Shown: one piece after another, positions 34,987 to 47,765 of the stretch | How the letters are laid out: each line of letters starts with the position of its first letter | Position numbering within the stretch: position 1 is the stretch's first letter | Program-made: the position numbers and the translations under genes | Source of the DNA: a virus | Lineage: Duplodnaviria > Caudoviricetes | DNA length: 51,165 nt | IMG/VR virus record: IMGVR_UViG_3300042506_000517 | Span: 1-51,165 of that record | Direction: 5' to 3' (one strand) | Notes under the pieces: generated by a model | Databases searched by the model: none | Told to the model about the DNA's origin: nothing | The model's input: only the letters and a program-made list of their open reading frames with translations

Positions 34987-35368
34987 TGGTGGACATAAAG
35001 GGAGTCGAACCCTTGTCTTTAAGACCTTATCATAATTAGACTACGTGTGTATACATTTTTTAGTTGTTAAAAACAATTATATTAAATATAAAAACTAATT
35101 GTTCTAAAGATTTACAAAATACTCAATCAACAACGCAAATCAAATTGTTGATATAGCCTGATATTTTACACCCAATATAATTATCAGACATCATTATATT
35201 GAATGCGCAACCTTAAGCTGCCAATGCTACTGCTTCACGGGAGGTGAAGTTATAGCTAATTACATTATCTTCTGCAGTTAATGTTTTGATAGAAATTTTA
35301 AGAGGCCAACTATCATCCTCTACACGCCTAACTAATCAATTATCTTAAATCGATACCAGTATATGCCC
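34987..35368 (-). ncRNA. ssrA: tmRNA; tag reading frame AEDNVISYNFTSREAVALAA* at 35213..35275
   Basis: 5' GGGCATA pairs with 3' TATGTCC-ACCA with G3.U; T arm GGGTTCGACTCCC; GCA resume codon after TAACT; tag ends in LAA. Confidence 0.92.
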
Positions 35369-35861: not shown

Positions 35862-35947
35862 CGGCGCAAACTACGGGAATCGAACCCATCACCGCTGATA
35901 ACTTAAGTTCAATCCTAAGCCAACGTTCTCACCAGATTGCAGCTAGC
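35862..35947 (-). ncRNA. tRNA-like RNA with extended anticodon arm, ending in CCG
   Basis: T arm GGGTTCGATTCCC, imperfect acceptor stem, CGTTG/CAGCG stem enclosing 23 nt. Confidence 0.55.
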
Positions 35948-36752: not shown

Positions 36753-36859
36753 TTATGTCATTATCGCCAGATGGGTTCTGTATTTCAGCATAACACCCAG
36801 TGACCGATCAAATGTTTTAACTTATGTTGGGGACATCAGATAGAGTTTCAACCCCGTTC
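36753..36859 (-). ncRNA. unidentified structured RNA, copy 1 (head of tRNA array A)
   Basis: Homologous to 46556..46681 with 26-nt and 16-nt identical blocks and covarying stems. Confidence 0.7.
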
Positions 36860-36907
36860 GTTATATTTCTAATTTACCATACTTCGTCAAATTGTCAACC
36901 ACTAAAA

Positions 36908-36970: not shown

Positions 36971-37024
36971 TCAACTTCCTGATGGGAGTTGACTGGCTTG
37001 ACTAGGTTGTGAAATTAAATTCAT
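36971..37024 (-). CDS. putative leader peptide A, MNLISQPSQASQLPSGS
   Basis: 17-codon ORF directly upstream of overlapping hairpins and terminator; residues match tRNA array A. Confidence 0.7.
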   Translation of the reverse strand: MNLISQPSQASQLPSGS

Positions 37025-38507: not shown

Positions 38508-38648
38508 TTATTTACTACCACTTGGTCTCGGAGTCCCAGTTGGCTTTGGTGTGCCTGTTGGCTTTGGTGTGCCTGTTGGTTTTGGTGTGCCTGTTGGTTT
38601 TGGAGTTGAATTAGGAGTCCCAGTTGGTTTAGGTGTTGGTGTTGGCAT
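38508..38648 (-). CDS. 46-aa (TPKPTG)n repeat peptide (frame differs from ORF track)
   Basis: MPTPTPKPTGTPNSTPKPTGTPKPTGTPKPTGTPKPTGTPRPSGSK; repeat variation is synonymous in this frame. Confidence 0.7.
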   Translation of the reverse strand: MPTPTPKPTGTPNSTPKPTGTPKPTGTPKPTGTPKPTGTPRPSGSK

Positions 38649-38692
38649 AAATTATATATTTCTTTCTTCAAATATACATATATTGTACAAAT

Positions 38693-42701: not shown

Positions 42702-42779
42702 TGGAGTCCCGTGTTGGATTTGCACCAACGATTTTAGAGTTTTGCAGACTCTCGCTTTTGTCTACTCAGCCAACGGGAC
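42702..42779 (-). tRNA. tRNA-Cys(GCA)
   Basis: Loop CTGCAAA, U73, CCA. Confidence 0.9.
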
Positions 42780-44673: not shown

Positions 44674-44750
44674 TGGTACACCCGGCAGGACTTGAACCTG
44701 CAACCTTCTCGGTAGAAACGAGTTGCTCTATCCAATTGAGCTACGAGTGC
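44674..44750 (-). tRNA. tRNA-Arg(TCT)
   Basis: Loop TTTCTAC, CCA. Confidence 0.88.
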
Positions 44751-44756
44751 ATTGAA

Positions 44757-44826
44757 TTTGTTAGTAGTTATGTTCTCACCAGTGATCACTGAGTAAAGGG
44801 AATTGAACCCAACATTTACTAACAAA
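44757..44826 (-). ncRNA. permuted tRNA-like RNA (T arm precedes D-like element) closed by a long terminal stem
   Basis: TTTGTTAGTA/TACTAACAAA stem, ATGTT/AACAT, GGGTTCAATTCCC, CTGGTGAGAAC. Confidence 0.5.
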
Positions 44827-44828
44827 AA

Positions 44829-44902
44829 TGGTTGGCTATCACGGTACCGCCCCGTGTTCTTTCGATTATCAGTCGAATGCTCTACTATTGAGCTAATAGC
44901 CA
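44829..44902 (-). tRNA. tRNA-Ile(GAT)
   Basis: Loop CTGATAA, T loop GGCGGTA, CCA. Confidence 0.88.
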
Positions 44903-44909
44903 ATTGAAA

Positions 44910-44985
44910 TGGCGAGGTATATGGGTGCTGCCCCCACTATCTTTTCCGTGACAGGGAAATGAGTCTGCTGTTCCTCTTATACCCC
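44910..44985 (-). tRNA. tRNA-Asp(GTC)
   Basis: Loop CTGTCAC, G73, T loop GGCAGCA. Confidence 0.88.
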
Positions 44986-44991
44986 AAAAAA

Positions 44992-45066
44992 TGGTAGGGC
45001 TCTACGGTAACGATCCGTATTCTACTGGTTAAAAGCCAGTTGCTTCACCGTTAAAGCTTGAACCCC
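44992..45066 (-). tRNA. tRNA-Lys(TTT)
   Basis: Loop CTTTTAA, T loop ATCGTTA, CCA. Confidence 0.88.
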
Positions 45067-45074
45067 ATTGAAAT

Positions 45075-45153
45075 TGGTGCAAGTGGTGGATACTGCCTCC
45101 ACACGAATATTCTGATTAAGAGTCAGATGCCCGTCTATTGTAGCTTCACTTGC
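45075..45153 (-). tRNA. tRNA-Lys(CTT)
   Basis: Loop CTCTTAA, T loop GGCAGTA, CCA. Confidence 0.85.
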
Positions 45154-45239
45154 ATTAAAAAATTGTATCTACTATTGTCAACGAACTATAATCATCTTAC
45201 CACACTTTATCCGCCCGTCAACAATCTTATTAAAAAATA

Positions 45240-45377
45240 TTCTGAACAAATCAACTTTATATGAGTGGTAGCTGCACCCACTCTCCGTATTCCCAAATTA
45301 ACCGTCTGGCCACATTCAAGGGCTTTCACTTGGATAGTTGATACCGGAGTATAGCGTTGCCTTCGCCTAGTTCAGAA
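45240..45377 (-). ncRNA. unidentified structured RNA inside array B
   Basis: Terminal TTCTGAAC/GTTCAGAA stem plus several internal complementary pairs. Confidence 0.5.
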
Positions 45378-45382
45378 AAAAA

Positions 45383-45457
45383 TGGTGGCTCAGGTCAGAC
45401 TTGAACTGACAACACGAAGTTCTTCAGACTTCTGCTCTACATTGGAGCTACTGAGCC
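45383..45457 (-). tRNA. tRNA-Phe(GAA)
   Basis: Loop CTGAAGA, CCA. Confidence 0.9.
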
Positions 45458-45467
45458 ATTAAAGTAA

Positions 45468-45548
45468 TTGACAAGTCAAAGGAATTGAACCTTTTCGGAA
45501 CAGAGTCGCCTGCTCCTTTACCACGCCCTGCGCACTAGCACCTGTCAA
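45468..45548 (-). ncRNA. tRNA-like RNA without CCA
   Basis: TTGACAGGT/ACTTGTCAA stem, GGAGCAG/CTGTTCC arm, T arm AAAGGTTCAATTCCTTT. Confidence 0.5.
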
Positions 45549-45552
45549 AATC

Positions 45553-45695
45553 AAGATGTATGGTTGGATTCGAACCAACGGCTACTTTTACAACCGTAAC
45601 ATGACGGATTGTTTTTTACAACCTAACATAAGATTTTTACGGGCTTACCCCATAGTTAGGTACTCTGCTCTGCCAACTGAGCTACATACAATCTT
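45553..45695 (-). ncRNA. tRNA-like RNA with a large structured insert replacing the anticodon arm
   Basis: Canonical D arm TAGCTCAGTTGGCAGAGC, T arm GTTGGTTCGAATCCAAC, TGTATG/CATACA stem, no CCA. Confidence 0.6.
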
Positions 45696-45700
45696 TAAAA

Positions 45701-45786
45701 TGGTGGGGTATGTAGGTAATGCGCCTACCGAGCCTTTCAGCGCCAGATTTACAGTCTGGACCATCTCTTTAATGGTATAATACCCC
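45701..45786 (-). tRNA. tRNA-Tyr(GTA)
   Basis: Loop CTGTAAA, long variable arm, CCA. Confidence 0.88.
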
Positions 45787-45807
45787 GAAAAATTATTTAC
45801 GGAAAAA

Positions 45808-45882
45808 TGGCTCTGGGAGAATGAATTGAACACTCATAAGGCACATTAACAGTGTGCTGCATTACCATTATGCTATCCCAGA
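45808..45882 (-). tRNA. tRNA-Asn(GTT)
   Basis: Loop CTGTTAA, G73, CCA. Confidence 0.9.
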
Positions 45883-45890
45883 ATTGAAAT

Positions 45891-45968
45891 TGGCTCCAGC
45901 CCTTGGCTCCGCCCCAAGCTCGACACGGTTTAACAGACCGCCGGTTACACTAAGTTTCCTTGACTGGA
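45891..45968 (-). tRNA. tRNA-Asn(GTT), second divergent copy
   Basis: Loop CTGTTAA, T loop GGCGGAG, CCA. Confidence 0.85.
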
Positions 45969-46029
45969 GTTAAAAAAATGTTTACTGGATTTCAACGAAC
46001 GTTCCATCTACTACTTATAACCTCGTCAG

Positions 46030-46059
46030 ATTATAACATTCAATGTCTATCAGTGTCAA
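46030..46059 (-). promoter_or_regulatory. consensus sigma70 promoter inside array B
   Basis: TTGACA-18-TATAAT with extended -10 TG. Confidence 0.7.
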
Positions 46060-46169
46060 TACATTACTTACTACTTCAACTATTGATTCAGATTCGAACT
46101 GAATTACTTCTGCTCATATGCAGTTGTTTTACCAATTAAACTACGTTCGCTGCCTTCACCTAATGTATT
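46058..46169 (-). ncRNA. tRNA-like RNA or pseudo-tRNA lacking a normal acceptor end
   Basis: D arm TAGTTTAATTGGTAAAAC, CTGC/GCAG with 6-nt loop, T arm TTCAGTTCGAATCTGAA, distal AATACATTA/TAATGTATT stem. Confidence 0.5.
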
Positions 46170-46177
46170 TGAAAAAA

Positions 46178-46252
46178 TGGCAAAGTGGGTGGGTAACGCT
46201 CCCACATAAAGCAGTTTTGGAGACTGCTGCATTTCTTGTCTGCCACCACCTT
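46178..46252 (-). tRNA. tRNA-Trp(CCA)
   Basis: Loop CTCCAAA, G73, CCA. Confidence 0.88.
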
Positions 46253-46259
46253 ACTAAAT

Positions 46260-46337
46260 TGGTGCTTCAATGAGGATTCGAACCCCAAACTCAATGTCCG
46301 TAGCATTGCGTGATATATCCATTTTCACCACCGAAGC
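46260..46337 (-). tRNA. tRNA-Arg(ACG)
   Basis: Loop CTACGGA, CCA. Confidence 0.9.
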
Positions 46338-46343
46338 ATAAAT

Positions 46344-46419
46344 TGGGGTGATATACGAGTGCTGCCCTCGTTCCGTGAGTTTCACAAACTCAAATGCTAA
46401 CTGTTACACCAATATCACC
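46344..46419 (-). tRNA. tRNA-His(GTG)
   Basis: Loop TTGTGAA, G-1:C73, CCA. Confidence 0.9.
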
Positions 46420-46431
46420 ATTACTATAAAT

Positions 46432-46513
46432 TGGAGCCGTTGACAGGATTCGAACCTGCGATGATTTTCCAGTTTACAAAACTGGTGTTTTCAACCACTC
46501 AACTCACAACGGC
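46432..46513 (-). tRNA. tRNA-Thr(TGT)
   Basis: Loop TTTGTAA, CCA. Confidence 0.9.
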
Positions 46514-46555: not shown

Positions 46556-46681
46556 TTATGTCATTATCGCCCTATAGGTTCTGTATTTCAGCATAACACC
46601 CACGGACCAATCAATTGATTTTCCCAGTCTTTACCTTTGGTTACTGGCGGTGGCTCAACAGATGGAGTTTCAAGCCTGTCC
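46556..46681 (-). ncRNA. unidentified structured RNA, copy 2 (head of tRNA array B)
   Basis: Homologous to 36753..36859 with a longer variable hairpin; preceded by TTGACG-16-TACACT. Confidence 0.7.
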
Positions 46682-46814
46682 TTATCTTCTATAAGTGTAT
46701 CAGAAATTATTGCTTCGTCAACACCTTTTTAAAATTTCACTTTCATTGCCCAATGAACCGCTTACGCCGCTCACTGTTTAACTACTCTACCACACTCTCA
46801 AAGAACTTCAACAC

Positions 46815-46852
46815 AAAAAACAAAAAAACCGTCACTTATTCAGTTGACGGTT
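46815..46852 (-). terminator. intrinsic terminator of attenuator B
   Basis: AACCGTC-A-ACT-GAATA-AGT-GACGGTT followed by TTTTTGTTTTTT. Confidence 0.85.
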
Positions 46853-46880
46853 GACATTGTTTCACTTTATCCACTTCACC

Positions 46881-46958
46881 CTACACAATATCACCGCCAA
46901 CACATTCACAATCCGTAAATGTATTCCAACGCTTAATATGTGTATAATTAACTCTCAT
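46881..46958 (-). CDS. putative leader peptide B, MRVNYTHIKRWNTFTDCECVGGDIV
   Basis: 25-codon ORF whose last codons are complementary to the terminator 5' arm; residues match tRNA array B. Confidence 0.75.
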   Translation of the reverse strand: MRVNYTHIKRWNTFTDCECVGGDIV

Positions 46959-46997
46959 TACTACAATATATATAACCAAAAATAAAAAACAACAATA

Positions 46998-47765
46998 TTA
47001 TTTAACTTTTATGTTTTTTATTATATCAATAAAATGTTTCACCAACCATTGATAATATTCCTCATTACTATGATTTGGATGACTTTTAATAGTATCAACC
47101 AATGTGTTTAATACAGTAGCGGCAACTATCTCTCCATATGATTTACCATTCATATCAACTCCATGCGTATGACTTCTATCACTTATCTTTATATTATTGT
47201 CACTTACCCATTTTTTAACTATTGATTCTATATCATTTTTAAAAGAACTATCATAGTAATACACCTTTAAACTATCATTGTGCGTCAAAAACATACGCAA
47301 AATCGCATGCGTCTTGTACGATATCGCAACTCCTCTTTTATCCGCAAATTGCTGCAATCGATAACTCAAACCATCACCCTTTATCTTATTTAAAAATAAC
47401 ATCACATTGTTTTTATCATTACGATCTATAGTAATATAATAATTATAACTCTTGCCATCCACTTTTACTTTTTTATCGGGATTTATATTTCGCTGACTCC
47501 AACCACCACCAGTATTCCATAACGACGATTTGTCAAAAAATTCTTTCCACCTTTTAGAATCATCTTCAGTATAACCCATCCGATTTAATATATCCGTATC
47601 TCCAAACAACCGCATATTTGTTATTATCTCATACATTGTGCTGTGGTCACCAGAAAATAATTTTCCACCACTTCGTATCCTATCTATTGTACGAATTATT
47701 TGATTCTTATGTCTTCCAATATCAAATGTCTGTGACTCAATAAGTAAATCTTTTAACTTTATCAT
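46998..47765 (-). CDS. hypothetical protein, possible internal virion protein
   Basis: MIKLKDLLIE N-terminus of a type recurrent in large-phage proteins (function inferred). Confidence 0.6.
   Translation of the reverse strand: MIKLKDLLIESQTFDIGRHKNQIIRTIDRIRSGGKLFSGDHSTMYEIITNMRLFGDTDILNRMGYTEDDSKRWKEFFDKSSLWNTGGGWSQRNINPDKKVKVDGKSYNYYITIDRNDKNNVMLFLNKIKGDGLSYRLQQFADKRGVAISYKTHAILRMFLTHNDSLKVYYYDSSFKNDIESIVKKWVSDNNIKISDRSHTHGVDMNGKSYGEIVAATVLNTLVDTIKSHPNHSNEEYYQWLVKHFIDIIKNIKVK

Follow-up and report, generated by a model that had tools for sequence, protein, structure and literature searches.

The locus and its tRNA arrays

The window analyzed here is a stretch of 51,165 nucleotides, positions 1 to 51,165 of the IMG/VR virus record IMGVR_UViG_3300042506_000517, and it is a piece of a large phage genome. 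Eight of 16 proteins were matched, including a baseplate wedge protein, a primase, a resolvase, Hsp20 and PhoH. The genomes of relatives reach 296 kb (complete) and 304 kb, and the sequencing runs that contain the stretch were made from lake and river samples; the source is a giant (jumbo) freshwater phage. A search of 50,697 GenBank phage records returned no match.

The window encodes 18 tRNAs and one tmRNA, and its tRNA genes are grouped in two minus-strand arrays, A and B, with complementary amino-acid sets (all features given below by coordinates also lie on the minus strand). Array A supplies tRNAs for Val, Pro, Leu, Ser, Gly, Gln and Ala. Array B (44674..46513) holds genes for Thr-TGT, His-GTG, Arg-ACG, Trp-CCA, Asn-GTT (two copies), Tyr-GTA, Phe-GAA, Lys-CTT, Lys-TTT, Asp-GTC, Ile-GAT and Arg-TCT. 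A gene for tRNA-Cys-GCA (42702..42779) lies 1.9 kb beyond array B and is the terminal gene of the B array in several relatives. As had been noted from the sequence alone, no tRNA-Glu was found in the window. ARAGORN called only 8 genes in array B, covering 7 amino acids; tRNA-His was called by Rfam (37.3 bits), while Tyr, Asp, Lys-CTT and the second Asn were called by folding and alignment, Asp being the weakest.

The usual T-loop consensus is missing from many tRNAs of array B (His, Trp, Asn, Tyr, Asp, Ile and both Lys), whereas those of array A mostly have it. Array B also holds several odd tRNA-like elements. Elements of this kind were seen at 45469-45546, 45548-45695, 45238-45378, 44756-44826 and 35863-35947, and include a homolog of tRNA-Ile-GAT in which GAC occupies the anticodon position, two that carry long inserts, an apparently permuted one and one with a four-base loop call. 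At 45972-46170 lies a tRNA-like RNA of about 200 nt with a closed stem and a perfect sigma70 consensus inside at 46059; RNA-library contigs begin at 45972 in three runs, one of them with a depth of 689. The tmRNA (34987-35368), downstream of array A, has a tag of 20 residues and may help to name the host. Between the arrays (38550-38650) a small Pro/Thr/Lys/Gly repeat ORF is followed by a terminator, and the same was seen in relative L346.

A leader ORF and three predicted alternative helices

A short, conserved ORF of 25 codons (46881..46958) lies 5' of array B. A previous inspection of the DNA (the sequence-only reading) had proposed that it is the leader of an attenuator, and our translation of 46958..46881 agrees with the 25-residue peptide given there, with AGA and CGT as its two Arg codons. 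No Shine-Dalgarno sequence was seen before the ORF, and a promoter-like AT-rich box (46965..46974) ends 6 nt 5' of its ATG; the leader transcript is likely leaderless or nearly so.

Three helices in this region are predicted to be mutually exclusive. The 17-bp antiterminator proposed earlier holds up: its 5' strand (segment 2, 46885..46901) and its 3' strand (segment 3, 46843..46860, which contains the terminator 5' arm) have the sequences reported, and on folding they form 17 pairs, including two G-U pairs, with one bulged A (−21.8 kcal/mol, z −4.55, matched by 0 of 200 shuffles). The intrinsic terminator (46814..46852) consists of a hairpin at 46852-46827 and a T run to 46814; with its extension it reaches −16.6 kcal/mol (z −3.10, 1 of 200 shuffles as good), and it was not among the calls of a generic terminator scan of the window. 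The further hairpin that had been suggested as a pause or protector (46925..46899) also stands out from shuffles (z −3.52, 0 of 200), but it is only the tip of a longer one: this segment 1:2 hairpin (46882..46946), whose inner stem pairs 46925-46915 with 46909-46899, spans most of the leader ORF and buries the antiterminator 5' strand.

Effect of ribosome position on the predicted fold

We modeled a translating ribosome by masking all sequence through 12 nt beyond the A-site codon. The computed terminator probability for the window, 1.0 without a ribosome, fell to 0.6-0.9 with the A site at codons 2-7 and to 0.0 across codons 8-15, then rose to 0.7 at codon 16 and to 1.0 from codon 17 to the stop. 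When the footprint was varied from 6 to 18 nt, the open zone moved between codons 10-17 and 6-13 and was still present, and the three-state pattern was reproduced by 2 of 150 shuffles. Constrained energies, a comparison on which the proposed competition between the two states could have failed, support it, as the favored state swaps with ribosome position: without a ribosome the terminator is better by 3.9 kcal/mol (−34.5 vs. −30.6), and with a ribosome at codon 11 the antiterminator is better by 2.7 kcal/mol (−23.9 vs. −21.2). Thus the earlier claim that a ribosome at the stop codon masks the antiterminator strand, and that stalling before it favors read-through, is reproduced computationally, except that masking begins at about codon 16-18, well ahead of the stop. 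Under this model, only the first ~16 codons of the leader would be able to sense. Because masking starts at about codon 16-18, Cys17, Glu18, Cys19, Asp23 and the off-array Val, Gly and Gly residues, which the sequence-only reading had placed mostly in the pairing segment, would be set by the RNA structure or lie at the margin of the sensor.

The same calculations were applied to the 29 distinct leaders described below. With a ribosome at the stop, the terminator exceeded 0.9 in full-length folds of all 29, and the antiterminator stayed at or below 0.27 in all 29 when transcripts were cut before the last arm; this block at the stop is the most secure result of the modeling. At equilibrium, a stalled ribosome lowered the terminator to ≤0.2 in 15 of 29 leaders and to ≤0.5 in 20 of 29; L036, L064 and L093 hardly flipped. 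The state without a ribosome depends on the model, being the terminator in 29/29 full-length folds and the antiterminator in 20/29 transcripts cut before the last arm, the window leader among these 20. In such cut transcripts the antiterminator also holds with a ribosome at codon 2 to ~16 in 26 of 29. The cut-transcript folds therefore make the protector role of the 1:2 hairpin uncertain and the default state questionable, and the true sensing zone may extend from codon 2 on.

Conservation among related phages

Relatives were sought with a pattern that fixed the terminator arms alone and left the antiterminator and the leader free. Among viral sequences this gave 23 loci, 21 of them family members; among metagenomes it gave 121 loci from 7 of 64 collection parts, of which 13 belonged to the family, and one more member came from a separate search. 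Thirty-four loci with a whole leader, the window included, collapsed to 29 distinct regions after identical ones were merged. Left out of the 29 were two truncated loci (L011 and L043), a duplicate (L044) and L107, which was recognized late, among the controls. By eye the 29 fall into about five lineages, and since they are kin, counts among them are not independent.

The antiterminator duplex is present in all 29 members, with no more than 1 of 300 shuffles scoring better in each case. Unrelated control terminators with the same arms were scored against 100 shuffles (threshold ≤1/100) in a fixed 98-nt window. The duplex was found in 3 of 104 metagenome matches, a further match having been removed as it turned out to belong to the family, and in 2 of 48 from prokaryote genomes. 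The latter came from a search for a host version of the element, in which 48 of 50 prokaryote-genome matches to the terminator pattern were scored, and neither of the two antiterminator-like cases had a leader ORF. Rfam has no family for the leader, giving only a chance match of 23.5 bits.

Covariation across homologs, another test of the earlier proposal, is borne out in part. The antiterminator was 88.9% paired across the sequences and 4 of 17 pairs had changed on both sides, a score reached by 1 of 500 shuffles; for the 1:2 hairpin and terminator, 12 of 39 pairs showed two-sided changes and 0 of 500 shuffles reached the score. The number of two-sided pairs alone was not above shuffles (103/500 and 53/500, respectively). 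Both-sided changes in the distal antiterminator helix occur between lineages. The stop codon shifts among lineages from beyond the antiterminator strand to within it, and the masking geometry is preserved. The start, the frame and the three helices are kept across lineages that differ in leader order and length, the stop-terminator spacer is variable, and leader indels 5' of the antiterminator strand are multiples of three.

Correspondence between leader codons and tRNA genes

The control codons of leader B match amino acids of the downstream tRNA genes. The sequence-only reading had stated that every amino acid of array B occurs in the leader, and this holds for 10 of 10, but ARAGORN alone supports only 7 of these amino acids. 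Across the whole leader, 16 of 24 codons fall in the array B set, which is not significant alone (P = 0.06, dinucleotide shuffles); the presence of all 10 array amino-acid types gives P = 0.024, and jointly with the codon count P = 0.006. Codons 2-15, a sub-window picked after the folding scan, have 13 of 14 codons in the set and 9 types (0 of 12,532 proteome windows; P = 0.0024, dinucleotide shuffles). The B set amounts to 10-12 of the 20 amino acids and is favored by AT-rich DNA, in which 57-72% of residues would be expected to fall within it.

For the family, a 12-residue B set was used (the 10 array amino acids plus Glu and Cys), which was fixed after the data had been seen. At codons 6-16 of the 29 leaders, 310 of 319 residues lie within it. 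Six distinct amino-acid replacements occur in codons 5-15 and none of them leaves the set, whereas of 72 possible single-base changes only 35 would remain within it. Leaders of distant lineages have a changed residue order and keep the match (10-13 of 14, vs. 4-9 for off-frame readings). Ile is encoded by ATT in 26 of 27 cases and never by ATA, fitting tRNA-Ile-GAT. In a single case, L026, the array begins with Gln and Cys, and both residues are in the leader.

The Glu codon, at first considered unexplained, corresponds to a tRNA-Glu gene within 4 kb in 15 of 24 related B arrays. Covariation at the level of genes, with a codon lost where its tRNA is lost, was not seen, since Glu18 is kept in the window without tRNA-Glu. 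Val3 is variable among leaders and outside the core sensing zone; the Ile-like element at 45469-45546, whose anticodon position reads GAC, was considered as its partner and rejected, as it does not covary with leader Val in relatives. Tandem control codons are absent, with no identical adjacent residues in codons 2-20 of the window leader.

The array A leader and other arrays

A sister leader ORF of 17 codons (36971..37024) precedes array A, with its own terminator and a downstream promoter at 36898. Of its 16 residues, 14 are A-set amino acids (P = 0.0002) and 2 are B-set amino acids. Three divergent A leaders have 15/18, 21/22 and 21/25 residues in the A set (3, 0 and 0 of 5000 shuffles, respectively); two of the three show no flip in folding. 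This reciprocal leader-array match is the strongest control on the codon correspondence. In L017 and L018, an A leader 5' of array A is apparently joined in frame to a longer ORF upstream of it, which carries Val-Thr-Val-Ser/Pro-Glu/Gln repeat units.

Leader gating is not universal among arrays. A search anchored on PhoH covered 80 loci and yielded 13 arrays, of which 4 had a leader that was called automatically and 3 more had one found by eye; 5 arrays of distant relatives had no leader within 800 nt, and one array was the tail of a B array. For a third array in relative G007 (Arg-TCT, Lys-TTT, Glu-TTC, Met, Ile-TAT and Leu) a leader candidate was rejected because its terminator, which stands behind the end of an ordinary gene, shows no flip, and no leader was called for its equivalent in G008. 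A third tRNA group in L347, L351 and L352 (Lys-TTT, Glu-TTC, Met, Ile-TAT, Leu-CAA/TAA and Arg-TCT) has sigma70-type promoters, and no leader was found there.

Promoters and transcription

Of the 29 leaders, 26 have an AT-rich box no more than 32 nt from the start; the box also occurs at 10 of 39 ORF starts of the phage, often those of structural-region genes, and in 36 of 1764 background windows (2%). A canonical sigma70 pair upstream of the leader was found in only 1 of 29. No Sigma70_r2 match for a phage sigma factor that could serve the leader promoter was obtained in the three related records searched (3/3), a model that divergent late sigmas could escape. Downstream of the terminator, two sigma70-type promoters, absent from the sequence-only reading, occur before the first tRNA gene, one at 46784..46811 (a −35 element, 16 nt, TG and a −10 element) and one at 46694..46721, and at least one is present after the terminator in 28 of 29 relatives. 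The attenuator therefore cannot be the only gate of array B. We infer that host-type promoters give basal early transcription and that a phage promoter class, probably a late one, provides a gated second input.

Contigs from RNA libraries of four studies, which may include DNA, fall on array B. In four runs, bin 46586-46812 was reached in three, and 46813-47266 was uncovered in all four. This pattern is compatible with transcription from the downstream promoters, but also with a terminated RNA of 140 nt having been lost or with divergence between strains, and we therefore do not count it as evidence.

A conserved structured element (46560..46676) lies before the first array B tRNA and has a counterpart at array A (about 36755-36855). 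In both arrays it follows the downstream promoter and precedes the first tRNA, and it has no Rfam match. It contains two helices, with two-sided changes in 3 of 18 pairs (6 sequences), and its invariant loops might pair with each other. It could be a processing or antitermination signal.

Proposed mechanism and alternatives

A conserved leader ORF, a terminator with a U run, a mutually exclusive antiterminator and computed selection between them by ribosome position point to a multivalent leader-peptide transcription attenuator, its translation and regulation being predictions; we give this reading a probability of roughly 0.7. The ORF would be translated, likely from a leaderless transcript. 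With a ribosome slowed within about the first 16 codons, the antiterminator would be free to form, and RNA polymerase would read into array B; a ribosome past about codon 16 would mask the antiterminator strand, and the terminator would form. Extra tRNAs would then be made when ribosomes are slow on array-matched codons. One codon per tRNA type and no tandem runs suggest a broad sensor, one that trips on near loss of any one tRNA, by cleavage or decay, or on generally slow translation. Since sigma70-type promoters follow the terminator, the switch is likely a conditional second input that boosts the array. This input would probably come from the class of promoter also found before structural genes, and hence late in infection. 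A wider proposal, to which we give even odds, is that these phages sort their tRNAs into two complementary arrays, each with an attenuator that serves as a codon checklist, sensing lost host tRNAs and transcribing the matching replacements. If so, the leader would be a feedback sensor against tRNA-destroying defenses and a readable record of the tRNAs being monitored.

The switch could instead respond to translation speed or coupling in general. Read-through would then be the default, and termination would occur only if a ribosome kept pace past codon ~16. Ribosome damage, host shut-off, antibiotics or any other cause of slow translation would open the switch, and codon identity would be secondary. 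Such a sensor would suit the weakness of single codons as stall sites and the cut transcripts, which form the antiterminator in 20 of 29 leaders when no ribosome is present and in 26 of 29 with one at codon 2 to ~16, and a precedent is the Anabaena trn array, induced by general translational stress (PMC8421152). However, it leaves the reciprocal A/B match and the within-set substitutions unexplained, and we consider it unlikely. Speed sensing as an added input is compatible with the attenuator reading.

It is also improbable, in our view, that the element is a relic or of minor importance, a former attenuator mostly bypassed by the downstream sigma70-type promoters. Their presence in 28 of 29 relatives, the Glu codon retained without tRNA-Glu and the weak flip of several members would agree with decay, but the start, frame and three helices have been kept while leader order and length diverged and the stop-terminator spacer varied freely. 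An untranslated element, in which a structured RNA or a protein-controlled terminator insulates the array from upstream genes and the ORF with its composition arises incidentally from an AT-rich hairpin, would explain why B-set residues are those common in AT-rich sequence and why pairing dictates the 3' half of the ORF. Against it, the in-frame match far exceeds that of off-frame readings and of shuffles, leader indels ahead of the antiterminator strand occur in steps of three, and leader A is enriched for the opposite set; we regard this possibility, too, as very unlikely.

Comparison with known systems

The reason for tRNA genes in phages has long been debated, and the favored explanation is that they replace depleted host tRNAs. 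Phage tRNAs are reported to counter depletion of host tRNAs by nucleases or decay (PMC10264068, PMC11464382, PMC13015707), which supplies a likely purpose for array B; the accessible parts of these studies describe no attenuation, leader or sensing mechanism, and those of PMC4810235 add nothing further on phage tRNAs against host tRNA loss. The trn L-array of Anabaena is likewise an accessory tRNA array and is controlled by the repressor TrcR, with translational stress switching it on (PMC8421152, PMC10272220). There, a protein repressor acts at direct repeats on the entire array together, and the accessible text mentions no leader or attenuator (PMC8421152). In the window phage, by contrast, the arrays are sorted by amino acid with a matching leader before each.

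The T-box riboswitch shares with the array B leader a choice between terminator and antiterminator that is linked to tRNA status, although it binds one uncharged tRNA directly and has no ORF. The Rfam T-box model gave no match in the leader region at the gathering score or at E ≤ 5. Control of this kind by a leader peptide is known for amino-acid genes; we did not find it described for tRNA genes in a literature search whose coverage excluded most subscription journals.

Leader-peptide attenuators include trpL, hisL, the multivalent thrL and ilvL, and pheM-pheST. E. coli pheL-pheA has the 1:2, 2:3 and 3:4 layout (PMC3082878). The array B leader shares with this type the short ORF, the layout of a 1:2 hairpin, a 2:3 antiterminator and a 3:4 terminator followed by a U run, the predicted release of segment 2 by a stall in segment 1, and control codons related to the downstream genes. 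It differs in that it precedes phage tRNA genes rather than biosynthetic or synthetase genes, covers 9-12 amino acids with about one codon each and no runs, which are typical of pheL, trpL and hisL, lacks a Shine-Dalgarno sequence and has conserved promoters 3' of the terminator. Because it has no tandem control codons, we treat it as a variant and not as a plain member of the class. The leaderless polycysteine sORF attenuators of mycobacteria (bioRxiv 10.1101/834739) resemble it in having a short ORF, likely at the 5' end of the transcript; they sense ribosome stalling, as leader B would. There, a tract of a single amino acid gates a ribosome-binding site, whereas the array B leader has mixed codons, an intrinsic terminator and non-coding genes downstream; with no homopolymeric codon tract controlling a ribosome-binding site, it does not belong with them. 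Leader codons that list the tRNAs of the array would be a direct sign of on-demand tRNA synthesis when decoding fails. If true, trp-style attenuation would extend from genes of amino-acid supply to tRNA genes, in the form of a sensor with 9-12 inputs.
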